From an uncultured Pseudomonadota bacterium (lineage in GTDB: Bacteria > Babelota > Babeliae > Babelales > CAIQNR01), in contig CAYSQM010000007.1 in NCBI GenBank assembly GCA_964433415.1, positions 4,291 to 68,290 of the forward strand: a stretch of DNA of 64,000 nucleotides. The letters are read 5' to 3'. The notes below the pieces were generated by a model. The model was not told the origin of the DNA and ran no database searches. It saw only the letters and a program-made list of their open reading frames with translations. Shown piece after piece: positions 45,268 through 62,835 of this stretch; the first letter of the stretch is position 1, and each line of letters opens with the position of its first letter. The position numbers and the translations under genes are program-made.

Positions 45268-45969
45268 ATGAAGAAATTACGTAATTTAGTATTGTTTATT
45301 GGCCTTTCTATTCTTCCTGGTTGTGATGGTGGGGTGACAAATTGGGTTAATGATATTTTTGAACAAGGTAAGACGCATCAATTTGATAAAAAACTTGTTA
45401 ATAAATACTTAAAATCAGTCCGCGTGTATGATGAATTTAATACAGTAGCGCTTTTTGATGTTTTATGGCTCTCTAATGATATTCGTACTATTTATTCATT
45501 ATTGCATAGTGATATGAATGGGTCAGGCAGAGAAGCTTCTAATGCATTTTTGCGACGACAACTTAAAGCAAATGACCATTTTTTAACGTTTTATGTTTTG
45601 AGTGCTCATGATATTCCTTTAAATGCAACGCCAGCATTGTGGAATACTTATCTTAAAATAGGTGAAAAAACTTACACACCTTTAGAAATTAAAATAGTTG
45701 AAATAACGCCAGAATATAGAGCGATCTTTGGATCAGTTTTAACTAATCATAAACGTCCTTATGAAGTTAAGTTTGATAGGAAAGATGCCGATGGTAATGA
45801 AATTCTTTTTTCTGGAACTAAAATGATAAGTTTTAATCTTAGTTCCCCAACGCATTACGCTAAGGTTGAATTTTTAGTAGAAGGTGAATCGACGCGAGTT
45901 AAAGAGCTTGCAATAGAATTGGATGATAAAGTTCAAGGGGCTAGTCTTCAGGAAAAAAAGGGGGAATAA
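45268..45969 (+). CDS. Hypothetical lipoprotein (233 aa)
   Basis: It has a GAGG Shine-Dalgarno and a lipobox (SILPGC). Its stop overlaps the rpiB start (TAATG). Confidence 0.6.
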   Translation: MKKLRNLVLFIGLSILPGCDGGVTNWVNDIFEQGKTHQFDKKLVNKYLKSVRVYDEFNTVALFDVLWLSNDIRTIYSLLHSDMNGSGREASNAFLRRQLKANDHFLTFYVLSAHDIPLNATPALWNTYLKIGEKTYTPLEIKIVEITPEYRAIFGSVLTNHKRPYEVKFDRKDADGNEILFSGTKMISFNLSSPTHYAKVEFLVEGESTRVKELAIELDDKVQGASLQEKKGE

Positions 45970-46394: not shown

Positions 46395-46455
46395 GCGTTT
46401 TTATTATGATTGCATCATGAATACAGATTTAAATTAAAGATTGAAGGATTTAATA

Positions 46456-49197
46456 ATGAAATATATAAGAAAAATATTTGTACTTTTTCTTTTTTTAAAT
46501 TTTAATTTTTCTATTTTTTCATCTGACGCAAAAAAATTTAATGCAGAAATTTCTTTTGTTACTATTATGAAGAAAGAAAGAAAAGATGCAGAATTGTTTG
46601 ATAATGGATTAACTAGAGCATCTCTTAATAAGATTTCTCCTTATATAGAACAATATATTCTTAAAGGAGAAAATTTATGCAGGATACCGATTTCTAGAGT
46701 TTATATAAAATTAATTTATTTAATAACTCAACACTCTCATGATATTCCAACTATTGAAAAAATTTTTATTAAAGATGGTTTACAGAAATTAAAAAATAAT
46801 AAAGAAAAAATTAAGTTCTTATTTGAATTGATCAAGTCTATTAGTTTTTTAGAATCGAATATCAATGAAGAAGTAATTGATTTGTTTTTTAGAAAAATTT
46901 TTGAATTAAGAGATGAAACAAAATTTGATGCCATTGAATTATTTAAAGAATTTGACACAGAAGAATATCTTTTAAAATATAAAGATCAATTTAAAAAATA
47001 TTTGTTAGAAAAAATAAAATTTCAATATAAACCAGTGCCAATTGCTAGGGTTAATCTACCTATTTATAATGAAATATCTATTTTATTATTTTCTCCAGAT
47101 TCATCATTATTATTAATTGATGGTGATGATAAATTTAATACTGTTATGTATGATGTTAATTCTTTTAAAAAATTATTTATTTTAACTATATATGATAAAT
47201 TGCATATTATGACTAATCCTTATTTAACAAAATTTTCATATGATAGTAGATGGTTTGTGAGGGTATCGCCAAATGCTGTTACTCTTTATAATGCCAAGAA
47301 TGGAAAAGAAGAGATTTTTTTATTAGAATCTGATGTGCAAAATGTTATTTTTTCTCCTGATTCTACTAAATTACTTCTGCAAAAATCTGATAATTTTTTA
47401 ATCTATGATATAAGTAAGAAGAAAAAAGATGAAATTCTTTTTCAAATAAGCGCACAAGATAAACTATTTAATAAAATTAAAAAAATAATGTTTTCTCCTT
47501 CAGGTAATCTATTATTTATAGAATCTTTGAGTAAAAAAATTATTTATAGACCTAATAGCAAATTATGGTCTGAGTCTAAAGAGTCTATTAATAAAATAAT
47601 TGTTATTAATATTAATACAGGTGAAAATCTCTTTTCTATAGAAAAAGAAGAACCTTTTTTCCCTGGATCATGTTTTTTAAGTGATACGCAATTATTGATA
47701 AATCATGGTCAAGAACTTATTAAATATGACATTCAAAATAGAGATGAATCACCTATAAAAATTAGTCAAGAACATACTAATATTAATACTGTTTTTATAG
47801 TGCCTAATAATAAGCTATTAATTAAATTATTAGATAATTGTATACTGTATGATCTTAATACAAAAAAATATTCATATATATTTAAAGAAAATTATTTTAA
47901 TTTAGAAAATAAAATTCAAGAAGTTAAGGTCTCTCCTTGTGGTAGAGAATTATTAGTTCGATCTGAAAATAAAGTTATTGTGTATGATTTTGAAAAAAAA
48001 GAACCTATTCTTTTAATAGAAAAAGGTGAAGCTGATGAGCAACATAATAGAAATATTTTTGCTGCTACATTTTCACCTACTGGTGCACAATTAATTACTC
48101 AGTCTGTGGATAAAACAATAATTCATACTATTTCTGATCATCATGATATCTTTAATTATTTTATAAGAAATCAAGGATATTGTTATTCTTTATCTCTATC
48201 TAGTAAAGAAATAGAATTAAAGCGTTATGAAATTTCAACAATAGAACATCAAATTTCTTCTTTTGAAGAAGAGGTAGTAAAATTTAAAAGAAGATTGTTA
48301 AAGGAATTTAGCGTAGAAGATATTTACAATATTTTAAAATTTTTATTTTCTGAAAAAATGCCTTCTTATTTTAATTTACAATTAAATAAAGAGGAATTAA
48401 AAAAGTATGAAATACAATTAAATGAAGAAATTTTTGAAGAGAAAAAAGAAAAAAAGAAAAAAGAAAAAAATGAAAAAGAAATTAAGGAAAATATTGTTGC
48501 AGGCTCTTTTACTCCTGAAGAAAGAGATGAATTCTTTGCTTCAAAGTATGAATTGTTTAGGGGTGAAGTTTCTGAAGAGGCAAGAAAATACTCAGAACAA
48601 AAAGTTGTCTATGAACCAAGGGTTGAACTTTGGTATTCTGATCCTGATAAGCGAATTGAGCAAGATTATAATAGTCCTAATGCAGAACAATTTAAAAAAA
48701 ACTTATTAAAAAAATATGGGAAAGATTCAATTGTTTTTAATCACCAATTTCCTAAAATATTGGATTATTTTCTTATTGGTGGATATGAACAATTTAAAGC
48801 CTTTTTTCATAAAAAAACTAATAAGTATTCTTTACAAGTGCCAGGCTATTATAATTCATTAATTAATCCTGAAAAACCTAGGCGTTTTGGTTTTTTTGAA
48901 ATTACTTATGAATTAGATGGTAATATTAAAAAAGTTTATCATAGATTTTTTAGAGAAGTTGAAACATTTGATGATCTATTAAAAGCTAGGCAATCAACAA
49001 TTACAGAAGAAATTATAATTAATAAAGAAGCTGATATACTTACTAAAGACTTTAATGGTTGGAAAATTGATAGAAAAGGTGAGGATGATTGGAAAGCCTA
49101 TTTGATGAAAGAAGATGAAGGTATTCTTCTTTTTAAAAATCCTGTTATTGAAAATCCTTTTTATGTATTATTGCCATGTTTATTAGAAAAAGAATGA
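46456..49197 (+). CDS. Large secreted protein with PD40/WD40-like propeller repeats, a K/E-rich segment and an unassigned C-terminal domain
   Basis: I prefer the ATG at 46456 (MKYIRKIFVLFLFLNFNFSIFS signal) over the TTG at 46441. The repeats include FSPDSSLLLI, FSPDSTKLLL, FSPSGNLLFI, VSPCGRELLV and FSPTGAQLIT, followed by EEKKEKKKKEKNEKE. Confidence 0.6.
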   Translation: MKYIRKIFVLFLFLNFNFSIFSSDAKKFNAEISFVTIMKKERKDAELFDNGLTRASLNKISPYIEQYILKGENLCRIPISRVYIKLIYLITQHSHDIPTIEKIFIKDGLQKLKNNKEKIKFLFELIKSISFLESNINEEVIDLFFRKIFELRDETKFDAIELFKEFDTEEYLLKYKDQFKKYLLEKIKFQYKPVPIARVNLPIYNEISILLFSPDSSLLLIDGDDKFNTVMYDVNSFKKLFILTIYDKLHIMTNPYLTKFSYDSRWFVRVSPNAVTLYNAKNGKEEIFLLESDVQNVIFSPDSTKLLLQKSDNFLIYDISKKKKDEILFQISAQDKLFNKIKKIMFSPSGNLLFIESLSKKIIYRPNSKLWSESKESINKIIVININTGENLFSIEKEEPFFPGSCFLSDTQLLINHGQELIKYDIQNRDESPIKISQEHTNINTVFIVPNNKLLIKLLDNCILYDLNTKKYSYIFKENYFNLENKIQEVKVSPCGRELLVRSENKVIVYDFEKKEPILLIEKGEADEQHNRNIFAATFSPTGAQLITQSVDKTIIHTISDHHDIFNYFIRNQGYCYSLSLSSKEIELKRYEISTIEHQISSFEEEVVKFKRRLLKEFSVEDIYNILKFLFSEKMPSYFNLQLNKEELKKYEIQLNEEIFEEKKEKKKKEKNEKEIKENIVAGSFTPEERDEFFASKYELFRGEVSEEARKYSEQKVVYEPRVELWYSDPDKRIEQDYNSPNAEQFKKNLLKKYGKDSIVFNHQFPKILDYFLIGGYEQFKAFFHKKTNKYSLQVPGYYNSLINPEKPRRFGFFEITYELDGNIKKVYHRFFREVETFDDLLKARQSTITEEIIINKEADILTKDFNGWKIDRKGEDDWKAYLMKEDEGILLFKNPVIENPFYVLLPCLLEKE

Positions 49198-49216: not shown

Positions 49217-49855
49217 CTATTTAATTGATGTTGTTAGGGGAGTAGTTATTGAGTTGGTAGTAGTAGAATTTGTACCAATTTTTTGATAATAAACATTTTG
49301 TAAATAAGCAGAAATGAAATCTGTAAGAACTAATAATAAATCAGCCTCTATTTCCTTTAATGGTAATATAATTTTAGTATATATATTTACAGTTTCATCC
49401 ATTTTAGTTTTTCGTAAAATTATCAATAATTTATCAAAAGTAAAATCTGGCGTATTAAGTTTTGGCACAAATTCTTTTGAAAAATTATCAAATTGATTTC
49501 TCCAAGCCCAGTAAGGATCATTAATGATATCACGAATTTGAGAATGTATTACATAAATTGCATCAAGATAGTTAGTTTTTGTAGCTTCTAAATTTGCAGT
49601 GATGCTCATGGGGTTAATGATATCATTTTTATATTTATTAAAATCTTTAATATATTTTTCTATTATATTTATCCTAATATCTTTAATTAATAATTCAGCT
49701 TTATCAAGATTTTTTGTAGCAATCTCTTGTTTTAAATCATTAAGTTTTTGTTGTTCTTCAGGCTTTAGTTGATAAGTTTGATTTGTAAGTAGGGTTGTAT
49801 GAGTTGCGCTAAATTGTCCAAGAAAAAAACATAAATAATATAAAAATTTTTTCAT
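49217..49855 (-). CDS. Hypothetical secreted protein (212 aa)
   Basis: It has a signal peptide (FLYYLCFFLGQFSA) and a T/S/N-rich C-terminus. It is convergent with the upstream gene, with a 19-nt gap. Confidence 0.5.
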   Translation of the reverse strand: MKKFLYYLCFFLGQFSATHTTLLTNQTYQLKPEEQQKLNDLKQEIATKNLDKAELLIKDIRINIIEKYIKDFNKYKNDIINPMSITANLEATKTNYLDAIYVIHSQIRDIINDPYWAWRNQFDNFSKEFVPKLNTPDFTFDKLLIILRKTKMDETVNIYTKIILPLKEIEADLLLVLTDFISAYLQNVYYQKIGTNSTTTNSITTPLTTSIK

Positions 49856-50012: not shown

Positions 50013-52751
50013 TTAAGCAGCATTAATTGATTGGCTATCATTGCTATAAAGATCAATTTTTGGCGTAAACAATAATGCTTTGCAAATAAGTTCTTTGCTA
50101 GTATCTTGAACTGGTTCAATTTCTTCAATTTCAAGAATTTCTTCAGTAGACAAAGAAGAACATTTCATAAGTGCTTCAATAATAGTAATTAATGTTTCTT
50201 TGTGGCTAGACAATAAGGAAAAGAGTTCTTTTTCACATTCTTCAACAAGTTTATACGATTGTCCAAGCTTAAGTTCACGTTCATATCGAGATACAGTTGT
50301 TTGGTTCTGTCCACGGAAGATAATCTTTTTTGCTAACTCAAGTGCAATAGTTAAATCTTCTGCATGACTTACGTAGTCCATCTCTAATACTTGCTGTCCA
50401 ATATTGCCAGAAAGAGCAATTTTACATTGTTTAAGTTGTTCATTAGTTGAAATCATATCAAGCATATCTTGAGTGTAATAAGAAAATATCCCACCATAAT
50501 TGATAGGATTTTGTTTCCCGTTTTCTTCATTCCACAGACGATGCGAAACATGAGTTTCACCAACATCTTTAATAACTTGTTCAATAGTAACAGAACAGAG
50601 CTTTTGATCAGGATTTAATAATAATGAAATTAATGCTTTTGAAGCAAAGCGTGTTGCAATAATACGTTTAGTTTTTTCTGAAATTTCTTGATCATATTTT
50701 ACAATTTGTTTAATAGCATCATTTACGGCTTGAACAATATGTTTTTGACCAACAGGTTCATGCGATTCTTTTGCATATGTTAATACTTTATTTGCAGCAA
50801 CTTGCATTACCCCATAAGAACAACCTTCGGTAGATCTGACAAGCATATCAATATTTAAATTAGTAGTATCCATTGCACGTTTTTTAAAGTAATGATTAAA
50901 ATATATTTCTCTATCCTTTTTTAAAGGGAAAGGGAAATATATAATTTCACCAAAACGTCCAGGTTGACGTAATGCGTAATCGATATTTTCTGGCCTATTA
51001 GTAGCAGCAATTACAAAGACTGGTGAACGTTCATCTGATAAAATACTTTCATGTAATATTTGTAAACATTCAGCGAGCAATGTTGCATTTGAATCACGTT
51101 GAGCGCGTAAGTTATCAAATTCGTCAATAAAAATAATACAAGGAGCTTTTTCACGAGCTAATGCTACCCAATAAGCAACGCCAGCAATTTTACCAGATTT
51201 TGGATCAACTTCTAAAATATCGTGAACTGAAACGTGGTAAACGCGAAGCTTGTCAGTTCTACCCATTTCTTCAAGTTGACGAGCAATTTCGCCTGTTAAA
51301 CAATCGATCAAAAAAGTTTTACCAGTTTGAGGTGGCCCTGCAAGAAGATAGCCACAAGGAATTTTTATACCAGCGCGAGTATAACGCTCTTGATGAACAA
51401 TGTAATCAATTAGAGGGGCAAAGCGTTTTTTGATATGATCACGTCCCAACATGCTATCAAAATTAGTATCAGATTTTGCAGTGTAAGATTTTTTGGTGCT
51501 TTTACGTGCTTCAAGGGTATCACGCAGGTCGCTTATTAATTGTCCAGCTTTTCCTTTAAGGTAGAGGAAATCATTATAAACATATTTAGCAAAAAATGCT
51601 GCAATACCAATTTCTGCATATTTTCCATAATTAATACTAATAAGAGGATCGATAAGGTCAGTTAAATTAGTAATATAGGCTTTATTTTCAGTGCGATAGA
51701 GTGCATGGGTAGTATTACTTTCTATGCCGGTTGCACGTGCTAGATCTGCATAATTTTCAGAGAAAATAGAGGCATTTTCAGGAATTAAATGAGCTGGTAT
51801 TTTTTCTCCTGTTTGACTATTTACAAATGTTGGGAGCGTTGCTTTTACGTCGAGATACTTACCATCTTGATTAAAAAGAGGGGTTCCGTTCTCATCGCAT
51901 GGAATATCAACAGGTATTGTACGTCGTTTAATTTGTTCCTTTTCTTCACCTTGAGCGCCTCCAATCCATTTAGATTTCTTAAGGTTAATTAAAAAATTAG
52001 AAACTCGGTCAGGTAAGAAATCATTTTTAAGTCGTTCTTCTGGGAAAATAAAAAGTGTAAAAAGAGCCATGCCGGTGTACACTGCAATATGTTCTGTAAT
52101 AGGTCCTAGTTTGTATCTTTTCCAAAAGCTAGTTACCGCTCTGGTTGTGTGGTTATACCAGGCAAGAGGAGCATTTATAGTGAGTTTTTCTAGAATATTG
52201 AGCATTACTTGATTGCTTTTTAAAAGTTCTTGCATGCTTTCAAGGGATACAAGGCCATCACGTTTTAAAATATTAGTTGGGTTAACAGCAGGGATAGCAA
52301 CAAGTTTATTTTTTAATGCTTCAATAAGGACACTAGTAAATTCTTTTACTAAGCGTCCAAGCATAACTAATTGAAATTTATCAACATGCATACTTGAATG
52401 TGCTCTAAATTCTTCGAGGCTCTTTTGTAAAGCCATAAGTTCTACTCTGACTTTTTCAGGATTGGTTACTTTTTTGAAAAGATTGTTCTGTAACGCTTGT
52501 CCAATTGAGTTAAATATTGAAAGAAGCTGGTCAATTTGAGCGTGAGAAATGTCTTGAAATGCAGTAATTACTTCTTGTGGAAAAACTAATTGTTGAGCAA
52601 TGCTATTTTGTGGAGCCCCTATTTTAGGGGCAGGAAAATCTTCTGAAGTTTGAAGAGTCTGTTCTTGCGAATAAGAAAAAAATGTGCTGGTTAATAATAA
52701 GCTGAGTAAAAACTTTTTTAAGAATGAAAATGATCCATTTATCACTTGCAT
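50013..52751 (-). CDS. FtsH-family AAA+ protein with a degenerate (HEXXH-less) M41 domain and a long N-terminal extension
   Basis: It has Walker A GPPQTGKT, Walker B CIIFIDEFD and SRH ATNRPENIDYALRQPGRFG. The position of FtsH HESGH reads TRFASK. It also has an N-terminal signal/TM and a second hydrophobic segment. Confidence 0.75.
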   Translation of the reverse strand: MQVINGSFSFLKKFLLSLLLTSTFFSYSQEQTLQTSEDFPAPKIGAPQNSIAQQLVFPQEVITAFQDISHAQIDQLLSIFNSIGQALQNNLFKKVTNPEKVRVELMALQKSLEEFRAHSSMHVDKFQLVMLGRLVKEFTSVLIEALKNKLVAIPAVNPTNILKRDGLVSLESMQELLKSNQVMLNILEKLTINAPLAWYNHTTRAVTSFWKRYKLGPITEHIAVYTGMALFTLFIFPEERLKNDFLPDRVSNFLINLKKSKWIGGAQGEEKEQIKRRTIPVDIPCDENGTPLFNQDGKYLDVKATLPTFVNSQTGEKIPAHLIPENASIFSENYADLARATGIESNTTHALYRTENKAYITNLTDLIDPLISINYGKYAEIGIAAFFAKYVYNDFLYLKGKAGQLISDLRDTLEARKSTKKSYTAKSDTNFDSMLGRDHIKKRFAPLIDYIVHQERYTRAGIKIPCGYLLAGPPQTGKTFLIDCLTGEIARQLEEMGRTDKLRVYHVSVHDILEVDPKSGKIAGVAYWVALAREKAPCIIFIDEFDNLRAQRDSNATLLAECLQILHESILSDERSPVFVIAATNRPENIDYALRQPGRFGEIIYFPFPLKKDREIYFNHYFKKRAMDTTNLNIDMLVRSTEGCSYGVMQVAANKVLTYAKESHEPVGQKHIVQAVNDAIKQIVKYDQEISEKTKRIIATRFASKALISLLLNPDQKLCSVTIEQVIKDVGETHVSHRLWNEENGKQNPINYGGIFSYYTQDMLDMISTNEQLKQCKIALSGNIGQQVLEMDYVSHAEDLTIALELAKKIIFRGQNQTTVSRYERELKLGQSYKLVEECEKELFSLLSSHKETLITIIEALMKCSSLSTEEILEIEEIEPVQDTSKELICKALLFTPKIDLYSNDSQSINAA

Positions 52752-52958
52752 CTCCTTTAGATCTTGAATGATTAATATAAAAACCCGAATTCCATTTGAT
52801 TTAATCCTCCAATTTTTATTATGTTACTTGACGATAACCCTTTTGTCAAAATGGTTTTTGTACTTTTTTTTTATTCAGATCTTTTTTATTAAAGGTTTTT
52901 GGTATACTGCCTTAAAATTTATTAGACTAGAGAAAATTAGTATTATCAATCGAGGAGT

Positions 52959-54440
52959 ATGCATATGTTTTGCCTAAAAAAGAAAAGCGTTTTGATTCTT
53001 GTGCTAATTTTTATGGCAGCAGGAGGAATTTTTTTCAGTTATAAATTTTTATTGAGAGATTCTGAAGATCTTTTAATCAAGAATTCTTATGATATTAATT
53101 TTGATTTAGTTTTTAAAAAGAAAAATGTAGTACCATTTTTAGTTTTAGGTTCTGGCCCCGCTTCATTGGCGGCAGCTCTTTATGGTGCGCGAACTAAAGT
53201 GTATACGGTAGTGCTCAAAGGGAATCAGCCTGGTGGAGCGTTAACGGGGACCTCTTATATTGAAAATTGGCCAGCAATTCGTAAAATTCGCGGTACAGAG
53301 GTTGTACAAGATTTTGAAGATCAAGCTGCACAATTTGGGGCAGTTATGATTGGAGATGTAGCTAAATCAGTTGATTTTTCTCAATGGCCTTTTAAGGTAG
53401 AGACTGAAGAAGGGTTGGAACTTTATGCTATGTCATTGTTCATTGGAACCGGCGCAACTCCTCGTCGGCTTAATATTCCTGGGGAAAATGAGTATTGGGG
53501 TAAAGGAGTAACGACTTGTGCTATTTGTGATGCGCCTTACCATAAAGGTAATGAGGTGGTAGTGGTAGGTGGAGGGGATTCGGCTGTAGAAGAGGCGCTT
53601 GAACTTTCTCCTTATGTAAAAAAAGTATTTGTTTTGGTGCGAACAGACAAAATGCGTGCTTCTCCTACTATGTTAGAAAAAATGAAGCAATGTACTAATA
53701 TTGAAGTGGTGTATAATACCACCGTTTCTCAAGTCTATGGTGACGGGGCGCATGTTACTGCAATTGATATTCAAGATACTCAAACTCATAAAGTGGTAAA
53801 ATGGGATACTATTAAAGGTCTTTTCTTGGCTATTGGTCATAGTCCAAATACTGCTTTATTTGATAAAAATCGTTTGGCCATTGATAATTATGGATATGTT
53901 AAGCTTATTGGCCGTACACAGGCTACTACAATTCCTGGAGTCTTTTGCGCAGGGGATGTTTCTGATCCTCGTTATCGTCAAGCGGGTGTTGCTGCAGGCG
54001 ATGGTATTAAAGCTGGCCTTGACGCAGTGTGGTGGTTAATGGAACAAGGCTATAATAAGAATTTTGCGGACAAGCTTGATCCTTATATGTTTGACAAAAA
54101 AGCAAGTAAACATGTAAGTATTACACAAATTAATTCAATTTCAGAGTATGAAGCATTTATGAAAAAAGTTAAAAATAAACTAGTAGTTCTTGATTTTTAT
54201 TCACCTTATTGTCCAGCATGTATGCATATGCTACCAGCAGTTGAGTGGGTTGGTGCTAAATTTTCTGATTCAGTTGCTTTTGCAAAGGTTGATACTTCAA
54301 TAGCCTTTGATTTGGTTAAAAAGTTTGAAGTCCCGCAGATCCCATATCTTATTATGTTAAAAAAAGGTGCAAAAATTTCTTCATCATCTCAGGAACTTGA
54401 TAGAGCTGGACTCTCTGCGTTTATTAAAAAAGAGCTTTAA
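52959..54440 (+). CDS. trxB: Thioredoxin reductase fused to a C-terminal thioredoxin domain, with an N-terminal hydrophobic anchor
   Basis: It has VLGSGPASLAAALYGAR (FAD), the CAICDA redox centre, VVVVGGGDSAVEEA (NADPH) and a C-terminal Trx fold with YCPAC. The N-terminus reads KKKSVLILVLIFMAAGGIFFSY. The start may be the ATG at 52965, which has better Shine-Dalgarno spacing. Confidence 0.85.
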   Translation: MHMFCLKKKSVLILVLIFMAAGGIFFSYKFLLRDSEDLLIKNSYDINFDLVFKKKNVVPFLVLGSGPASLAAALYGARTKVYTVVLKGNQPGGALTGTSYIENWPAIRKIRGTEVVQDFEDQAAQFGAVMIGDVAKSVDFSQWPFKVETEEGLELYAMSLFIGTGATPRRLNIPGENEYWGKGVTTCAICDAPYHKGNEVVVVGGGDSAVEEALELSPYVKKVFVLVRTDKMRASPTMLEKMKQCTNIEVVYNTTVSQVYGDGAHVTAIDIQDTQTHKVVKWDTIKGLFLAIGHSPNTALFDKNRLAIDNYGYVKLIGRTQATTIPGVFCAGDVSDPRYRQAGVAAGDGIKAGLDAVWWLMEQGYNKNFADKLDPYMFDKKASKHVSITQINSISEYEAFMKKVKNKLVVLDFYSPYCPACMHMLPAVEWVGAKFSDSVAFAKVDTSIAFDLVKKFEVPQIPYLIMLKKGAKISSSSQELDRAGLSAFIKKEL

Positions 54441-54561
54441 TTCTTAGAAATGGCTTTAAAAAAAAATGAAGTAAAAAAATTGTTGTATTTTAAGTAGTCC
54501 TTTTCCTAAACTTTACTTTAAAGGTTAAAAAACTATTAGTAATTTTTTGGAGAGTGATTTT

Positions 54562-57500
54562 ATGAAAAATTTAAAAAATACAAAATTGGGACTCATTTTT
54601 TTTGCAGTCAGTCTCTTTTCTTTTATTGCCATTAATAATATCTCAGTTGCAATGGAAGGTGAACTAGGAGAAGCCTTTGGTGGGATGGATGTTGAAGCGC
54701 TGGGCAAAGAATTTAGTGAAGCTGCAGCAAATGCTGAAGAATTTGTTGATAAAGCTGCACAAGAAGGTAACGAATTTACTAGTAATAAAAACGTTGAACA
54801 GGAATTAGCGAACGCGCAAGAAGGTTTGCAGAGCCAGTCAGCTGTTAGCCCAGAAGATTCAGTTTCGTTTTCAAGTGGCGGTGACAGTGTTATGAGTAGA
54901 AGTATTAGTAAAGATAGTTTTTCTGACTTTCCACCACCGTCACCTCATATGACTGAGTCAGCAGGGTTGGTTCAAGAACAAACACCTATGCAAACAAAAG
55001 CTATTAATCAAACTACAGTAGAAACAAACACCCCACGATTAAATAACATGTCAGATCCAGTTGAGCCTGTTGCTAAAACAACAGATGCAGTAGGTGATGC
55101 TTTATTAAAAAAGGGACAAGCAGCTTTAGACGTTAAATCTACTACAGCTGATCTTGAAACGGCAAATGCGCAATTAAAAGATGCAAGTAATGCCCTAAAA
55201 GAAGCAAAAAGTAGTGGGGATCCTGATGCTATTTCTACTGCAAATAAAAATTATCAAGATGCCCTTGAGCAACAAGGTAAAGCTTTAGATGCGCAAGCTT
55301 CTGCTAAAGCCGCATTAAAAGATGCTGGCGCACAAGCGAGTTCTGCAAATGCTCATAATACAGACAGTTTGGCAAAGCAAGCATCAGAACTTAAGTCTCA
55401 AATGGGATCTAAATTAGAAAATGCTAAAAGTAGTCTTGAAGCAGCTCAATCTGATTTAGAGGCTTTTGAACAAACAAAACCAAATGAAGCTGATTATGAA
55501 AAAAATGATGATAATAATGCTTGGATTAAAGCTAATGATGAGTATGAAGAAGGTTTGCAATCAAAGCAAGCTGCCGTTGAAAAGGCTCAAGGAGAAGTTG
55601 AGTCAGCTCAGAAAAATTATGATGCAGCGTCTAAGGCAGCAGAAGGTAAATCATTTGCTGCTAAAGCATGGGATTTTGCAAAAGGAAAACTTGAATTTAT
55701 TGCAGAACAACTTGTACAAAGTGTTTTATTTTCTATAGTTCCAGAAATTTTTCAACAATTAAGTCAAACTTTACAAAATAAAGCTTTATATGCAGATATC
55801 ACAAGTGTCAAAACATTTGCGGGTATTAATATGAAAATACCTTCTGGTTTAGTGCCAAGTGAAAATCCTTTAGGTGGATTATTTATTTATTATGATGTGC
55901 AGCCAGGAAGTAAAATTACCAATGCCTACTTACGTGACCCAAATCGCCGTTGGTTTGTTTCTTATGATCCAACAGGATTTGCTGAACCTGGAACTTATTA
56001 TATAGGTGCAAGTAATTTTCCAGACTCTATGTTGGAATTGAGTACAGGCCTTATCTTTGATGCGTCTGGTTCTGTAGTCTATCCTTCATATAGCCCAAGT
56101 CAATCAATGCCATTTACTATGCCAACATCATTACTTTTTAATGATACGAGTACTGTTTCCAATACTGCATTATGGAGTTCTTCACCTAAAATGTCTATTG
56201 AAGCTGCTTTAAATGGGCTTACTACAAGTGTTAATGGTTCTTCTAAGAGCTCTAGTTATGGTAGTCTTGATCCTGTTAACATTTTCTTTGGTGGAGCAGG
56301 TTCTTATGATACAGGCCCAGATTCTAATAGTAATCTTAAGTATTTATTTACTACCCCGTCTTATTATTCAGCTAATCTTTCTTATCCTCCAATAATGCAT
56401 TCTACTCTTTTACAATATGTAACTCCTACAGAAAATGCATTAACTAATTTTGGACAACCTGCTGTGGGGCAAGTCCAAGGGGTGGCAATTTCTTTACAAG
56501 AATTAGCTGGGTTAGGAGATTTAGCAGAAATTTTTGGGGCAGCTTATTTTAATATATTTATTAACCAATCATCTTCTTTAAGTCCAGCAGATTCAGCTGC
56601 TTATTCTGCTAAATTAAAGAATTTTTATGAAGGTCTTGCGGCATTAAGATATGTTGATCCAGCAAAAGTTACCGATCCAAATGCACAGTTAGTAGGTACC
56701 ACTTTAGAATTAACAAATAGTGCATCTTTGGATCATTTAATTTCTTCTTTAACAACTGCTACTGCTCAGAATACTAATGGTTTTGATCCGCGAGATCATT
56801 TGATTGCTCACGGTCTTCCAATTTATCAAACGGATAGCACTCCAACTGCACAATTTTTAAAAGATTTTGTATCAGCTACTTCAAGTTCTGTTTTGGCAAA
56901 ATATGTACATGATATAGTAGTTCCTCTTGATACTAATAAAATGCCTACTTTAGCAATGATTCCTACTGTTACTAATGGGTCAGTCAGTTTTCAAGCAAAT
57001 CCAGCTGTCCAATACATTACGAGTTTGGTTTCTGGTTTAACTTATCAGCAAAATAGTGGTTATAATATGCCGGTTCAAAGTCCTAATGGTGGTGCAGATA
57101 ACACAATAGCATCGTCTATTCTTAGTTATATAAGTACACCTTCAAAATGGCCAGTATCCATTTTGATTTCTCAACAAATTTCACAAATTCGTAGCTTGTT
57201 TAATACTGCAATTACAGAAGGCCCTTTTAATTTAAGTGGTGGACTTCAAGCGTATCGCGTTTCTCTACCTGCAATGTTAAATGCAGTAGTAGATGGAGTT
57301 ACTAATCAATCTTTAGTTAATAATTGGATTGGTAATGTAGCTGAACAGATACCAAATACAGCATCCTTTCCTGATTTTAATCAAAAAATGGCCTTGTTAG
57401 CAGATGCGTTTGTATATACTATTCCTAATGCATTGCAAGGTATTGCTTCTGATGGGGTGACTGTTATTTCTTTACCTGATTATGTGGTACCTATTATGCA

Positions 57501-60500
57501 AGATTTAGTGAATAAAGATTGTTATTTGATGGTGCCATTAGGTTGTCAGGCTTCCACTAATAGTATCGGTTTTGGAATGCCTAGTCAGCAAATATTTGGT
57601 TTGATAAGTTTGGTTACTTCTAAATTTTATAATCCTGATTATACATTAAAAAATGATCCAGTAGCTGATTCTTTAAAAATTGGAAATCCTCCTTCATTGC
57701 CTACAGTTTTAGGAACAGCATTTGTAGAAACTGATTTTAATCCATTAAACTTTACCAATACAGGTACTAAATCTAGCCCTGTATATACTCCTCTTAGCCC
57801 CTATATTGTTACTATTCCATCATTGTATTTCTTAAATCTGAATGCTTTTTCATTTTCTTTTGGATTGCTTCCTGTTCAATCAACAAGTTCAGAAGCAGGT
57901 ACATCATCTGCTGGGGCTACTTTTATTACCATTGGAGGAGGAAAGCCAGCTCCTTTAGGTATTCCTTTAAATATGTTGCTTCCTCAAGGGTTTACTGGTA
58001 TTGCTCCTAATTCAAATTCTCTTAATAGTACTATTCCTGGGTCTTCTACTCCTTCTACGGGGGTGACATCTTATACTAATGCACAATTGGTTTCTGCAGA
58101 AAGTGGAAATTTACCAAGTGTGAGTGCAGTACACGCTTCATGGTTTACTTATATGAATAGTATAAGTGCAGGTTCAATTATGTTAGAACTTGATCCTCAG
58201 TATATTTGTAATAATAATGGGTATTCAGATTGGACAATTACTGCTACTAATATTGCCGATGTTAAGAATGGTAATTATTTCTATACCACTAATCAAACTT
58301 CAGGACTATACGTATTAGCTACTTATGGAAATGGTGGTACTACTACTTCAGTAAATATTTCTGGAAAATCTGTGTCATTAAGTGATTTTTCTGGAATTGG
58401 TGCAAATTTTAGTGAAGCAGCAAGTAGTAATGCTTTAATTGATGTAGGAACAGGTTCGGTATTAGTTATAGTTCCTGGATCAAGTTCTTCTACTACCACT
58501 ATGGCTCCTTTAATGCGTTATTCTGTAGCTAGTGGTACTAATTCTCCAGCATTATTAGCTCCTATTTTATTAGATCCACAAGCAGTTACTGCACTTGCTT
58601 TAAAAAATCAACAAACAAATGCTGAAAGTAAAGCTCCTTCTGCTCAATTATTGTCACGTATAGCTTCTTCTCAAGGAAATAGCACGAATACTACAGTAAT
58701 GGGTCCTTATTCTTATGCTGGATATTCTTTGACTGTTGATAGACAGTTGTATAATGATGGAAATTATATTTACACAGCTAAAGATTCAACTGGTGCCATT
58801 AAAGACTACCTCATAACTTATGATTCTTCATCAACTCAAGTATATAATAAACCATTTTCTATCAATTCAAAAATGGTAAGTATGTTGAATGGAAGATTGT
58901 TTAGTGCGTCAGGAGTAAATAGTAGCACTAATGGTGGGATATTCTTTGGAATAAATAATTTTGATCTTTCAAAAGCTCCTGAAACGTGTGAAGGTTTAGT
59001 TGTAGGAGTAAGTGGTGTTCAAATTAATTCAATAACAGAACCAACTATTATAAATGATATTGCAACTCTTGCAGCAACGGTAAATAATGAGGTTATTAAT
59101 CAAAGTAATATTATAGATGATTCTGAAGCTATTGAAGATAAAGTTTTTGCTCTAGCGCAAAAATTACATATTCCTTATGCTGCTCTTAATTCTACACAAC
59201 CTATTGCGAGCATTATTGGTCAATCTGTCCAATTTAATGAAGAAAATGGTATTCTTACGGGGCAATTAGTTCAAGATACTAATGGGCAATTTTATTTACG
59301 TTCAGCAATTCCTACTGGTACGTCTTCAGTTAATGGCGCAACCTTAGCTTATTCATATTATCAATTTGATATTTCACAGTTGCCATCTGCAAAAACTTTA
59401 GATAAAAATAAAATTTTGCAAATGCCAACCGGTGTTTTTTATGATCAAAATGGTAAAGCAACTTCTGTATTAGTTGGTAATGCTGCTTTAAAAATGCTAT
59501 CAGCATATGGTCTTGTTATTGCGCCTTCTAATCAGTTAACGCTTGGTCTTCCACTAGTCAGACAATCGTTGCCAATGACCGTAAGTGACTATAATGTTGA
59601 AAGTAATAGTTCTGCTTTATTAAATGGGGGAAATGGATTATTAATGCAAAGACTTCCAGGAACTTCTGTTATTAGTGGTTCTTCAGCTGATTATTATTTT
59701 TATAAAAATATTTTCCATGCAGGAGCATCAGCAGCACAGTTGGAAGCAGCTGAAAATAATGCGTATGGGGCTTATAACGATCCTTATTCTCCTTATGATC
59801 TTCTATTGCAAGTTAATCCAAAAGTTAATCCTCAAGCACCTTCAATTCCTGCAGGGGATCCTTATTTTGCAAGTCTTTTAACAGGAATTACTTATGGAAT
59901 GGATGGAACGCAACTTTATGAAAATTGTGAACTATATTTCCAAAATATAGGAAATTCTTCATCTGCTCCTGCTTCAAACTTGCCATTAATAGTCTGGGGT
60001 GATGGAATTGCTAATACTCAAGCGATATTAGGTTCAAGTGATATTTCAATGGTAGATGGTATTCAAGTAGAAGGTACTGATTTTGTTAATTTTAATACTT
60101 ATCAAATCGATCCTTTTGGATGGTCTTTTGAATATGTTTCTCCATCTGATGCTTCTAATAATCCAGTAATTTATACGCTTACTTATCAAGATCCAAGTTA
60201 TTATTTAAGCGCGGGTAATCCAGGTTTTTCATTCCAAGCATACCCTCCAACTGCCGTACCTAATAGTGAAGGCGAGTATATTTCTCAACTTACGGATTCA
60301 AAAGGGAATGTCACTTATGTTATAGAAAATAGTGATGGTGAAAATACACCATTAATTCCAGGGCAAATCTTTAAAGTTGACTCTAATGGGGCACTTATTG
60401 CAACCTATGGAGAAACTGCAGTTATTCCTTCTGTAAGCTCAGCATTGTCTCTTGCTGATAATAATACAGCAGTGCTTTCTGCAATATGTAATGCTGTAGC

Positions 60501-62835
60501 AGAAAGTATGTATGAAGCATTAACTACTGGTCGTGGAGCTAATAATCCATTACCTACTCTTGGAACAGTCTATAAAATTTCAACAGGTCCTAATCCTACA
60601 GTACTTAAATCATATTATTTAAATGGCACACCAAATGCACCGGTATTTGATAAAAGTAGTTTTTCTGCTGGAGATATTGATGTAAGTACTGATGGTTCTT
60701 TTGCTACAACTATTATTAATCAAGGATATATTAATCTTGTTTTAGCCAATATGCAGGCTGCTCAGGCTGAAAATTCTACCACTGGCACAGTGTTTGTTGT
60801 ACCAAGTGTAGCAGGTTCAGCTTTACCATCTCCGCTTAAAGCGTCTTATAGCATGCAATTAACAACTCCAGCTGGTTCAAGCGCTCCAACTTTAACGCAA
60901 ATTGCAGGAGCTGCTGCTCAAAACATGATAAATGCTTTAAATGATGCAAATAGTGCAAAATTAGCTCAGTCACGTAAATTGATGAATATGACTAGTGTAA
61001 TTAAGTATGGATCTACTCTTGAAAAAATTTTATTAGCTCAAGATAGTTTAGGGGTATACAGTATGTATCAATCTAATCTTCTTACTAATAATGGATCTGC
61101 CTTAGCTACCTATAGTTTACAACCTTCTGAGTTATGGAAAGCAAATATTTTAAGCTTTGTCGGAACGCGTCCTAGCTCAGCAGCAGTAGGTACATTGCCA
61201 GTTTATGATCAAACTAATGTTTATAATAATACTGTCTTAATAGAAAATGTATTAACAAAAACTTATGATACAATTATTTATGATAATTCAGTCTATCGCC
61301 CTGTAAAACCGGGTGGTGCTTTAGGAGTAGGATTAACTTCTGTTAATACCTTTAATATATTAGGTGCTTCAGCTCAACCTATACCAGAATCAACTCCAGT
61401 AACATATGCACCATTAGATTTTAGTAATACTGCAAGTGGTCTTTCTACTAATGCATCCGATTATATTACCTTAAATATAAAAAACTATGGTGATTTATTA
61501 AATCCTGGGAAGCTTCCTCCAATACAGTATACTGATTCAAATGGTAATTTAGTTAATATTTGGCCACAAAGTATGCCTGGGTTATTGTTAAATGATGCAA
61601 AATACGTAAGTATTAATGCTCCGTTTAATGCAACTGGGCCTCAATATAGCAATGGTAAATTTGTACCAAATCCAACTGAATGGATTTTCCAATATGTGTA
61701 TCCATTAGTTGATCAGAACGCTATACCTGATTTATTAGGCTCGCTTAATATTGCATTGGTAGGTTCAACAAGCGGTATAATAACTCCCGTTATGACTCTT
61801 CCTGTTAATAATGGAGCTATTGCTTTAAATAGTATTGCAGCATCTCCTAGTGATGGTGGTCAAGCGCTTGCATTGGCTGCAATAAATAGTTCTTATAGTA
61901 CGGCAACAACAAATACAACAACTGCTCAAAATAATTTAAATGCTTTAATTGCAGAAGTTAATGCTGATGCTACAAGTGCAGTTCAATCAGCTATTCCACA
62001 AATTCAAACGGGTGGAACATGTCCAGCAGGAACAATGCCAGTTTCTATTGCAGGTGCAAGAGGTCCAGCACAAACATATTGTGTTCCTGCAACGGCATTA
62101 TCTTTAGTTGGGGGTACTACCAATGCTAATAAAAACACGAATAGCAATACTAGTGGAATTAGTTTAAATCAAAATAAAACTGTTTCACAACTTCAATCTG
62201 GTGTAGCGAATGCACAAAAAACGTTAGCTAATTTACAGTCGAACTTAACTGCAGTAACAACTCCATCTACCGGTCTTCTTGCTTCTCGTTCTGCCAGTCG
62301 TATGGCATTTTTAAATAATCTTTATTATAGAACGGTAACATCAGTTAATGAAAGTGGTAATTCTCCTTCTACTGTAGCTATTTTATATTATAAAGTGGAT
62401 GCAAACACATTAAGTCAGTTATCTGCTACTACTAATGCAACTATTGGGTGTTATATTGAATATCCAATAGGTACGCAAGAAGCTGGGTATATTTATAATG
62501 GTATTGCTCCAACAGCTGATCAACTTGATTTGGCAGGAAAACCTATACCACCAGCAATTGCTTTAGGTGAGCCAACAGGTGCATCATTGTCTTCAGCTGA
62601 TATGATAACATTAAAGAGTCTTGTGGGGACAACGCTTCTTTTAAACTCATCAGGAGTTCCTGTTTCTGCATTAATACCAGATCCTTCTCAAAATAGTATT
62701 ATTACTTTGACTGCTGGTAATAGTCTTTTCAATAATTATTTCTACTTTGGTGATTTATTACCTGGTGGGTCTGCTTTTGTTGCTCCATCGGTATCGGCTC
62801 CATTATTAGGGGGTTTGAGTAGTCCTTCAAAGTAA
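54562..62835 (+). CDS. Giant (about 2,757 aa) secreted or surface protein with no recognised domains
   Basis: A GGAGAG Shine-Dalgarno lies 8-9 nt before the ATG at 54562 (the track starts at the TTG at 54547). The protein has a signal/anchor (LGLIFFAVSLFSFIAINNISVA), an A/K/Q/E coiled-coil-like region of about 220 aa, then more than 2,000 aa rich in S/T/N/G/P/Y. A terminator follows. Confidence 0.7.
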   Translation: MKNLKNTKLGLIFFAVSLFSFIAINNISVAMEGELGEAFGGMDVEALGKEFSEAAANAEEFVDKAAQEGNEFTSNKNVEQELANAQEGLQSQSAVSPEDSVSFSSGGDSVMSRSISKDSFSDFPPPSPHMTESAGLVQEQTPMQTKAINQTTVETNTPRLNNMSDPVEPVAKTTDAVGDALLKKGQAALDVKSTTADLETANAQLKDASNALKEAKSSGDPDAISTANKNYQDALEQQGKALDAQASAKAALKDAGAQASSANAHNTDSLAKQASELKSQMGSKLENAKSSLEAAQSDLEAFEQTKPNEADYEKNDDNNAWIKANDEYEEGLQSKQAAVEKAQGEVESAQKNYDAASKAAEGKSFAAKAWDFAKGKLEFIAEQLVQSVLFSIVPEIFQQLSQTLQNKALYADITSVKTFAGINMKIPSGLVPSENPLGGLFIYYDVQPGSKITNAYLRDPNRRWFVSYDPTGFAEPGTYYIGASNFPDSMLELSTGLIFDASGSVVYPSYSPSQSMPFTMPTSLLFNDTSTVSNTALWSSSPKMSIEAALNGLTTSVNGSSKSSSYGSLDPVNIFFGGAGSYDTGPDSNSNLKYLFTTPSYYSANLSYPPIMHSTLLQYVTPTENALTNFGQPAVGQVQGVAISLQELAGLGDLAEIFGAAYFNIFINQSSSLSPADSAAYSAKLKNFYEGLAALRYVDPAKVTDPNAQLVGTTLELTNSASLDHLISSLTTATAQNTNGFDPRDHLIAHGLPIYQTDSTPTAQFLKDFVSATSSSVLAKYVHDIVVPLDTNKMPTLAMIPTVTNGSVSFQANPAVQYITSLVSGLTYQQNSGYNMPVQSPNGGADNTIASSILSYISTPSKWPVSILISQQISQIRSLFNTAITEGPFNLSGGLQAYRVSLPAMLNAVVDGVTNQSLVNNWIGNVAEQIPNTASFPDFNQKMALLADAFVYTIPNALQGIASDGVTVISLPDYVVPIMQDLVNKDCYLMVPLGCQASTNSIGFGMPSQQIFGLISLVTSKFYNPDYTLKNDPVADSLKIGNPPSLPTVLGTAFVETDFNPLNFTNTGTKSSPVYTPLSPYIVTIPSLYFLNLNAFSFSFGLLPVQSTSSEAGTSSAGATFITIGGGKPAPLGIPLNMLLPQGFTGIAPNSNSLNSTIPGSSTPSTGVTSYTNAQLVSAESGNLPSVSAVHASWFTYMNSISAGSIMLELDPQYICNNNGYSDWTITATNIADVKNGNYFYTTNQTSGLYVLATYGNGGTTTSVNISGKSVSLSDFSGIGANFSEAASSNALIDVGTGSVLVIVPGSSSSTTTMAPLMRYSVASGTNSPALLAPILLDPQAVTALALKNQQTNAESKAPSAQLLSRIASSQGNSTNTTVMGPYSYAGYSLTVDRQLYNDGNYIYTAKDSTGAIKDYLITYDSSSTQVYNKPFSINSKMVSMLNGRLFSASGVNSSTNGGIFFGINNFDLSKAPETCEGLVVGVSGVQINSITEPTIINDIATLAATVNNEVINQSNIIDDSEAIEDKVFALAQKLHIPYAALNSTQPIASIIGQSVQFNEENGILTGQLVQDTNGQFYLRSAIPTGTSSVNGATLAYSYYQFDISQLPSAKTLDKNKILQMPTGVFYDQNGKATSVLVGNAALKMLSAYGLVIAPSNQLTLGLPLVRQSLPMTVSDYNVESNSSALLNGGNGLLMQRLPGTSVISGSSADYYFYKNIFHAGASAAQLEAAENNAYGAYNDPYSPYDLLLQVNPKVNPQAPSIPAGDPYFASLLTGITYGMDGTQLYENCELYFQNIGNSSSAPASNLPLIVWGDGIANTQAILGSSDISMVDGIQVEGTDFVNFNTYQIDPFGWSFEYVSPSDASNNPVIYTLTYQDPSYYLSAGNPGFSFQAYPPTAVPNSEGEYISQLTDSKGNVTYVIENSDGENTPLIPGQIFKVDSNGALIATYGETAVIPSVSSALSLADNNTAVLSAICNAVAESMYEALTTGRGANNPLPTLGTVYKISTGPNPTVLKSYYLNGTPNAPVFDKSSFSAGDIDVSTDGSFATTIINQGYINLVLANMQAAQAENSTTGTVFVVPSVAGSALPSPLKASYSMQLTTPAGSSAPTLTQIAGAAAQNMINALNDANSAKLAQSRKLMNMTSVIKYGSTLEKILLAQDSLGVYSMYQSNLLTNNGSALATYSLQPSELWKANILSFVGTRPSSAAVGTLPVYDQTNVYNNTVLIENVLTKTYDTIIYDNSVYRPVKPGGALGVGLTSVNTFNILGASAQPIPESTPVTYAPLDFSNTASGLSTNASDYITLNIKNYGDLLNPGKLPPIQYTDSNGNLVNIWPQSMPGLLLNDAKYVSINAPFNATGPQYSNGKFVPNPTEWIFQYVYPLVDQNAIPDLLGSLNIALVGSTSGIITPVMTLPVNNGAIALNSIAASPSDGGQALALAAINSSYSTATTNTTTAQNNLNALIAEVNADATSAVQSAIPQIQTGGTCPAGTMPVSIAGARGPAQTYCVPATALSLVGGTTNANKNTNSNTSGISLNQNKTVSQLQSGVANAQKTLANLQSNLTAVTTPSTGLLASRSASRMAFLNNLYYRTVTSVNESGNSPSTVAILYYKVDANTLSQLSATTNATIGCYIEYPIGTQEAGYIYNGIAPTADQLDLAGKPIPPAIALGEPTGASLSSADMITLKSLVGTTLLLNSSGVPVSALIPDPSQNSIITLTAGNSLFNNYFYFGDLLPGGSAFVAPSVSAPLLGGLSSPSK

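Follow-up and report, generated by a model that had tools for sequence, protein, structure and literature searches.

What can an FtsH-type AAA+ ring still do once it neither cuts nor threads its substrates? This question is raised by an open reading frame (ORF) in a 64,000-nucleotide stretch of DNA (positions 4,291 to 68,290 of contig CAYSQM010000007.1, assembly GCA_964433415.1; hereafter the window) from an uncultured bacterium of the Babelales. The ORF at 50013..52751 encodes an FtsH-derived protein, which we call the pseudo-protease. Only in plastids are protease-dead relatives of FtsH well established and understood in structure; there they form an import motor, and bacterial examples have been mentioned just in passing. 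The family described here lost both activities that define FtsH and kept the ATPase. The function that we infer, with moderate confidence, is that of an ATP-driven switch or scaffold of the inner membrane, present in single copy throughout the lineage, which neither threads nor degrades polypeptides.

A first-pass annotation of the window had listed a canonical ftsH containing HESGHA and had taken the ORF at 50013..52751 for a second FtsH-family gene, with an M41-like C-terminus in which both histidines and the glutamate of the HEXXH zinc site are gone. These assignments were all borne out. The canonical FtsH carries the FVGVGA pore loop, the DGF motif and HESGH. BLASTP aligned it to the pseudo-protease, encoded like it on the minus strand, with E=2e-28 over residues 431-883, that is, from the ATPase into the C-terminal domain. 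When the zinc site was aligned, BLASTP, MAFFT and HMMER each placed RFASK on HESGH/HEAGH (H->R, E->F, H->K), and no intact HEXXH was found in register. The register is confirmed by relatives of the protein in which these columns read HQAGH or HFAGH.

Matched against Pfam M41 on its own, the window protein gave a marginal hit (E=0.0087, last 43 residues) of 16.4 bits, under the cut-off of 29.9. All six family members that were tested matched M41, the best of them with E=4e-10. A profile of the C-terminal 230 residues matched solved FtsH protease domains with E=3e-8 and the Chlamydomonas motor subunits with E=0.1-0.2. An AlphaFold2 model was built from a family alignment of 85 sequences (predicted local distance difference test score, pLDDT, 84.4; predicted TM-score, pTM, 0.77). 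Compared with the PDB by Foldseek, its top matches were all FtsH, AFG3L2, YME1 or Ycf2-FtsHi chains, with a target-normalised TM-score (TMt) of up to 0.78 over ~468 columns. These results show that the C-terminus of the pseudo-protease has a divergent, genuine M41-like fold of FtsH ancestry.

The pseudo-protease belongs to a large orthologous family, which the first-pass annotation had not seen. A first homology search returned only five close orthologues (52-67% identity) and one relative with 29% identity. When 1.84 billion cluster representatives were searched exhaustively with a profile, more than 150 clusters, formed at 50% identity, matched with E<1e-107. The proteins are mostly 780-1,100 amino acids long and match over the AAA module and the C-terminal region, often over the N-terminus too. 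The census rests on this cluster-representative search, and residue counts were taken over 150 members; P0155, listed among the matches, is an ordinary FtsH and was left out. Follow-up protein searches with the family profile and with an N-terminal profile found no further members, and a scan of genome contigs found unrelated AAA genes only. A scan of metagenome contigs with the family alignment was keyed on the Walker B pattern, returned ordinary FtsH genes only and is uninformative on the family. One family member is labelled 'cell division protease FtsH' in JGI; this label, like 'ATP-dependent Zn protease', probably overstates the proteolytic capacity of the reduced genomes that carry the family.

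Across the family, the position of the HEXXH glutamate is occupied by Glu in 0 of 150 members (Q in 65, F in 48, L in 13, Y in 11, others in the remainder). The first zinc-ligand His is present in 113, the second in 60 and the third-ligand Asp in 113, and 54 members have all three. The catalytic base has thus been lost by the whole family, and loss of the metal ligands is proceeding separately in individual lineages; the window protein is part of a subclade lacking both His residues. The resulting natural series (HQxxH, HFxxH, no ligands) offers variants with which the roles of the M41 domain can be dissected. Conserved Cys or His residues that might form a replacement metal site family-wide were also sought, and this idea was rejected since none is universal: C776 and C839 are kept by about two-thirds of the members (98/150 and 101/150), H796 by 85/150, and the SCxxSCH motif common in members does not occur in the window protein. 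Separately, a family-specific insertion in the M41 beta-hairpin region contains near-invariant Glu732 (135/150), Gly753 (150/150) and Phe756 (135/150).

Loss of catalytic and pore residues is also what a decaying, functionless ftsH duplicate would display. For the pair P0002/P0015, which is unsaturated (synonymous rate, dS, 0.29), the ratio of nonsynonymous to synonymous rates (dN/dS) was 0.13 overall. By region, it was 0.05 in the AAA module, 0.05 in the N-terminal four-helix bundle, 0.16 in the M41-like domain and 0.13-0.44 in the linker; for the signal peptide and the disordered linker it was 0.46. With dN/dS at 0.13 for the whole gene and 0.16 for the dead protease domain, the gene is not decaying and the domain is kept by selection. 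Thus the check on decay among homologues that the first-pass annotation had called for came out in favour of purifying selection, which, as these ratios indicate, acts on all folded domains. Full-length intact ORFs in more than 150 clusters and near-invariant ATPase motifs point the same way. We also examined ten loci of family members, spanning 100% to ~23% identity, and the gene lies in the same position in all ten. Because this neighbourhood recurs in 10/10 loci, the gene looks like a single-copy, lineage-wide orthologue. Selection and conservation have already refuted decay, the probability of which we regard as negligible.

The motifs of the ATPase, quoted in the first-pass annotation as Walker A, Walker B and second region of homology (SRH), were each found within a match to Pfam AAA. 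The AAA module alone had the FtsH AAA domain as its best single-domain match in the PDB, with 175 bits versus 149 bits for Cdc48 D2. The features that define classic-clade AAA+ proteins (PF00004, Walker A and B, the sensor-1 Asn and the SRH Arg finger) are all present, with AATNRPE / ALRQPGRFGE at residues 582-602. The position of the first Arg finger, the first SRH Arg, is Gln in the window protein and in 95 of the 150 members. Judged by sequence, the motifs for nucleotide binding and hydrolysis are intact in the pseudo-protease and near-invariant family-wide.

AAA+ translocases need the aromatic residue of pore loop 1 to grip their substrates, and mutating this residue abolishes proteolysis by FtsH. 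At the pore-1 position the window protein reads HDILEVDPKSGKIAGVA, the loop itself being VDPKSGK. The aromatic-hydrophobic-Gly motif, [FYW][VILMC]G, was found in 0 of 150 family members, and in 125 of them the pore-1 segment is ~7 residues shorter than that of FtsH (a 10-residue segment). The close orthologues P0002, P0004 and P0005 have no pore-1 loop (HEILE-K-TIS...); even close orthologues differ at this loop. Pore loop 2 is shorter as well, and the DGF motif for inter-subunit signalling is replaced by HES in the window protein and by MSG in the family consensus. The alignments show substrate-gripping loops that are degenerate or deleted throughout the family, a loss that the first-pass annotation had overlooked.

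These loops bear directly on the mechanism put forward in the first-pass annotation, an unfoldase or translocation motor like plastid FtsHi/Ycf2. Its reading of an FtsH-derived protein that lost the zinc site and kept the ATPase stood; the motor found no support. A non-proteolytic motor that threads polypeptides, the equivalent in bacteria of the Ycf2-FtsHi import motor of plastids, would have to work with a pore-1 aromatic motif found in no member, a loop deleted in most and variable among close orthologues, a shortened pore-2 loop and no DGF. In the Orf2971/Ycf2-FtsHi motor of plastids, the central pore has reportedly retained the aromatic residue of the pore loop (bioRxiv 10.1101/2024.09.02.610899). 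The C-terminal profile, moreover, resembles bacterial FtsH far more closely than it does the Chlamydomonas motor subunits. What the motor explains well is the combination of a dead protease site with conserved ATPase motifs, as in FtsHi, together with the membrane anchor and sizeable ectodomain, and Ycf2-FtsHi chains are among the top structural matches (8xku_E, TMt 0.73). On balance, we consider such a motor, the leading alternative to the switch or scaffold, unlikely.

Like plastid FtsHi, the family is FtsH-derived, lacks HEXXH, keeps its ATPase motifs and is probably membrane-anchored with enlarged non-cytosolic parts (PMC8197885). It differs in that the plastid motor keeps the pore-loop aromatic residue, threads preproteins and works inside a eukaryotic organelle as a heterohexamer with numerous accessory subunits, whereas the present family is bacterial, single-copy, devoid of pore loops and nearer in sequence to bacterial FtsH. 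With bacterial FtsH (M41) it shares the domain order, the two hydrophobic segments around an ectodomain, the classic AAA+ module and the M41 fold; Walker A and B, sensor 1, one Arg finger and the Asp in the column of the third zinc ligand are kept. Unlike FtsH, it has RFASK for HEXXH and Gln for the first Arg finger; the FVG of pore loop 1, the long pore-2 loop and DGF are gone; a four-helix bundle of ~155 amino acids takes the place of the small FtsH_ext and a linker of ~190 amino acids that of a short one; and there is an extra helix in the M41 beta-hairpin region.

Laboratory 'trap' variants of FtsH are protease-dead through a change of the HEXXH Glu to Gln, have functional pore loops and still translocate substrate. 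Gln at this position is natural in 65 of the 150 family members and all three ligands persist in 54; in the window protein, unlike in the trap variants, the two His ligands are missing too. Degenerate pore loops are also seen in AAA rings such as p97 D1 and NSF D2, in which nucleotide serves oligomerisation or regulation and not threading. These are likewise classic-clade AAA modules without the pore-loop aromatic residue, but each of them is paired, within the same enzyme, with a second ring that does the threading, whereas the AAA ring of the pseudo-protease is its only one. An FtsH of Prochlorococcus marinus SS120 that is presumed to be inactive has been mentioned in passing, as have FtsH/FtsHi paralogues in Firmicutes (PMC8197885). 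They are a precedent for HEXXH-less FtsH homologues in prokaryotes, as isolated mentions in which no family is described. Our literature searches found FtsHi only in plastids, apart from these passing prokaryote mentions, and no description of the present family. The FtsH-derived pseudo-protease as a kind is thus already known; new here are the loss of the pore loops, the new ectodomain and single-copy conservation on the scale of a phylum.

The N-terminal half has the layout that had been read from the sequence: a hydrophobic N-terminus, ~190 amino acids and a second hydrophobic helix. A comparable N-terminal h-region (10-14 residues followed by small residues) occurs in 134-139 of 142 family members, and the first hydrophobic segment looks like a cleavable signal peptide. 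It is followed by a disordered, variable stretch and then by the four-helix bundle, which was modelled with a pLDDT of ~95. The bundle matched no Pfam family, including FtsH_ext (PF06480), and no significant fold in the PDB (best E=0.3); according to the model, the ectodomain would be a new four-helix bundle. Near the membrane lies the best-conserved feature outside the ATPase, a motif in which, over 85 members, L196 is conserved in 93%, N200 in 89% and R204 in 96%. In the model, the last helix of the bundle runs on into the putative second transmembrane helix (TM2), which reaches at least 1.0 on a 17-residue Kyte-Doolittle window in 124 of 142 members. Residues 268-353 of the linker have low pLDDT, and the family alignment there consists mostly of gaps with low conservation.

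The same N-terminus could send the protein elsewhere. AAA ATPases bearing signal peptides have been proposed as secreted effectors in Babela massiliensis (PMC4378268), and the widespread signal-peptide-like N-terminus and the moderate hydrophobicity of TM2 would suit a Sec-exported effector that is set free in the host cell, where it would find ATP, and is not an inner-membrane protein. Effectors do not typically evolve like this gene, however, which is single-copy, keeps a constant housekeeping position in 10/10 cases and has dN/dS of 0.05-0.16. As in FtsH, moreover, the ectodomain lies between two hydrophobic segments, with a bundle helix that runs into the hydrophobic helix. We regard an effector as very improbable, and an FtsH-like topology as the most parsimonious reading of the sequence.

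Since ftsH and the pseudo-protease gene occur in one genome, the two products might also meet in one complex. In that case the pseudo-protease would be a regulatory subunit in mixed hexamers with canonical FtsH, or would dock on FtsH rings, and would tune or restrict proteolysis. Heteromeric FtsH-type rings are known (FtsH12/FtsHi, m-AAA and cyanobacterial FtsH2/3; PMC9020784), and the M41-like domain, which corresponds to the driver of hexamerisation in FtsH, is under purifying selection. The identity to the cognate FtsH of the window is only ~24-26%, though, and the ectodomains are unrelated. The linker of ~190 amino acids, compared with the short one of FtsH, would hold the two ATPase rings at unequal distances from the membrane, and the genes lie 35 kb apart and are not co-transcribed. 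A role of this kind seems quite improbable to us, less so than export to the host.

The favoured reading, an inner-membrane switch or scaffold, can be put as a sequence of steps. The M41-like and AAA domains would assemble the pseudo-protease into a ring at the inner membrane, on its cytoplasmic side, where the protein would bind and hydrolyse ATP. The ATP cycle would serve as a conformational switch or scaffold, without threading or degradation of polypeptides. The periplasmic bundle, which carries the conserved WYNxxYR motif, might receive the conformational change by way of the transmembrane helix. Because this proposed mode involves neither threading nor degradation, the pseudo-protease would act beside canonical FtsH and not replace it. 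The likeliest setting would be the homeostasis of the envelope or of membrane proteins in a small-genome, probably host-dependent bacterium. A more elaborate version seems doubtful: there, an FtsH-derived AAA+ ring without proteolysis or threading would use cytoplasmic ATP hydrolysis to drive the periplasmic bundle by mechanotransmission, would possibly be co-regulated with thioredoxin reductase (TrxB), encoded next to it, and would be a core component of the envelope that defines a whole group of host-dependent bacteria. If so, the family would form a functional class of its own among FtsH-derived machines.

Several points weigh against the switch or scaffold. We infer the ATPase activity, the oligomeric state and the topology of the protein. 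Gln at the first Arg-finger position could mean that hydrolysis is slow or dependent on a partner. The 54 members that keep all three ligands may bind metal or peptide, so that part of the family could have such a role. Some AAA+ machines engage their substrates through other loops; therefore, the loss of the canonical pore loops argues against threading without excluding it. The AlphaFold2 model is that of a monomer, and the pore geometry and the residues in the former zinc site were judged by alignments alone. Finally, the putative TM2 is moderately hydrophobic (family median Kyte-Doolittle value 1.39), and its flanks break the positive-inside rule, with a net charge of +1.0 before the helix and 0 after it.

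Table 1. Positions in the window of the pseudo-protease gene, its domains and motifs, and associated features.
Feature	Residues	Coordinates	Strand	Remarks
Whole ORF, FtsH-derived pseudo-protease		50013..52751	-	912 aa (amino acids) from ATG; probably 910 aa from GTG 52745
Sec-type signal or anchor segment	1-28	52668..52751	-	KK, h-region LLSLLLTSTFF, then SYS; hydropathy; predicted helix 9-27
Putative periplasmic four-helix bundle	59-212	52116..52577	-	Helices 59-88, 98-119, 125-147, 170-212
Juxtamembrane motif APLAWYNHTTR		52140..52172	-	Family consensus GLxWYNxxYR
Second hydrophobic helix, putative TM2	215-237	52041..52109	-	Kyte-Doolittle 1.5
Long variable linker	238-425	51477..52040	-	Ends in long helix, residues 377-413; FtsH linker short here
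AAA+ module	426-680	50712..51476	-	PF00004 E=1e-20
Walker A GPPQTGKT	472-479	51315..51338	-	Lys in 149/150 family members
Degenerate pore-1 loop segment VHDILEVDPKSGKIAGVA		51174..51227	-	Replaces a 15-residue FtsH stretch
Walker B IIFIDEFD	539-546	51114..51137	-	Glu 150/150, Asp 144/150
Shortened pore-2 loop NLRAQRDSNATLL		51075..51113	-	~8 residues shorter than in FtsH; follows Walker B
Sensor 1 and SRH, AATNRPENIDYALRQPGRFGE		50946..51008	-	Asn585 146/150; Arg599 150/150
M41-like pseudo-protease domain	681-880	50112..50711	-	Profile, Pfam, AlphaFold2/Foldseek; dN/dS 0.16
RFASK in HEXXH position	701-705	50637..50651	-	Three aligners
Asp799, column of FtsH third zinc-ligand Asp; kept	799	50355..50357	-	Asp in 113/150
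Terminator-like hairpin directly past stop codon		49958..49982	-	10-bp stem, then T run; consensus match only
Promoter-like site TTGACA-17-TAACAT		52821..52849	-	10/12 matches; consensus match only
Thioredoxin reductase-thioredoxin fusion gene		52959..54440	+	C-terminal Trx domain; divergent; adjacent in 10/10 loci
Canonical ftsH, all motifs intact		12759..14747	-	PF01434 E=2e-63; AAA E=5e-45

The coordinates of all these features are collected in Table 1. At the 5' end of the pseudo-protease gene, AAGGAG directly abuts the ATG at 52751, and the GTG at 52745, two codons on, is better spaced. A public gene call whose protein is identical to the product of this ORF has 910 amino acids, and the true start is probably the GTG. 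A promoter-like site and a terminator-like hairpin, both of them consensus matches only, suggest a monocistronic unit; promoter-like sites are no more numerous than in shuffled sequence.

The gene had been described as surrounded by orphan secreted proteins, which does not apply to all of its immediate neighbours, as one flank is formed by the thioredoxin-reductase/thioredoxin fusion. Indeed, in 10/10 loci the pseudo-protease gene stands head-to-head with a thioredoxin-reductase gene, which is usually fused to thioredoxin. On the other side, a block of rpiB, lipoprotein, LolC/E-like, PGK and DnaA genes is found whole or in part in 9/10 loci. In the locus L093 the right-hand block is different, the TrxB adjacency is kept and the Trx domain is absent. 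The adjacency to TrxB hints at co-regulation but is no evidence for it, given that the region is collinear as a whole.

Downstream of the pseudo-protease gene, 49217..49855 (-) is a helical ORF of 212 amino acids with a signal peptide, 57-60% identical to an ORF of 199 amino acids in L003. In L088 the same downstream position is taken by two tandem ORFs (205 and 202 amino acids), neither of which matched the window ORF by BLAST at E<=1e-3; in L004 and L087 that position holds no counterpart. We rejected this ORF as an operon partner: it is conserved in the closest relatives only, and the terminator-like hairpin lies in between. In L092 (3475..4765) a leucyl-aminopeptidase (M17) gene upstream is broken into several short ORFs, which suggests a pseudogene or assembly errors; the pseudo-protease gene of that locus is intact.

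Further out, 54547..62835 (+) is a giant ORF of 2,762 amino acids without a Pfam match. Counterparts of at least 2,339-2,760 amino acids, two of them cut by the end of the locus, lie beyond TrxB in L003, L085, L088 and L090, and none was found in L004 or L087. On the other side, 45268..45969 (+) encodes a lipoprotein of ~220 amino acids (lipobox LPGC, no Pfam family) and adjoins the LolC/E-like FtsX-domain gene; homologues occur in L003, L004, L085, L087 and L088, usually directly beside the LolC/E-like gene. A WD40/beta-propeller protein of 918 amino acids is encoded at 46441..49197 (+). It is missing from the otherwise collinear L003, and the gene, which codes for a eukaryote-like repeat protein, seems to have been inserted lineage-specifically.

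As a whole, the window is a housekeeping region of the chromosome with a GC content of ~32%. It encodes ThrRS, XerC/D, PBP2, SuhB, FtsH, TolB, TolA/TonB-like, YchF and TrkAH, as well as Psd, PssA, AmiC, DnaA, PGK and LolC/E-like proteins, alongside many orphan proteins and WD40 and leucine-rich repeat proteins. Ankyrin proteins and an ATP/ADP translocase are encoded nearby in the loci of relatives. Taken together, these features would suit a member of the Dependentiae (TM6). In the window's canonical FtsH, Walker A is atypical, GEPGNGKT instead of the usual GPPGTGKT, and the remaining motifs are standard. Lastly, the ORF at 5664..8426 (+), of 920 amino acids, may be another unusual AAA+ protein; its sole Pfam signal is a partial sigma-54-interaction (AAA+) match over residues 696-783, with E ~1e-9 to 1e-10.

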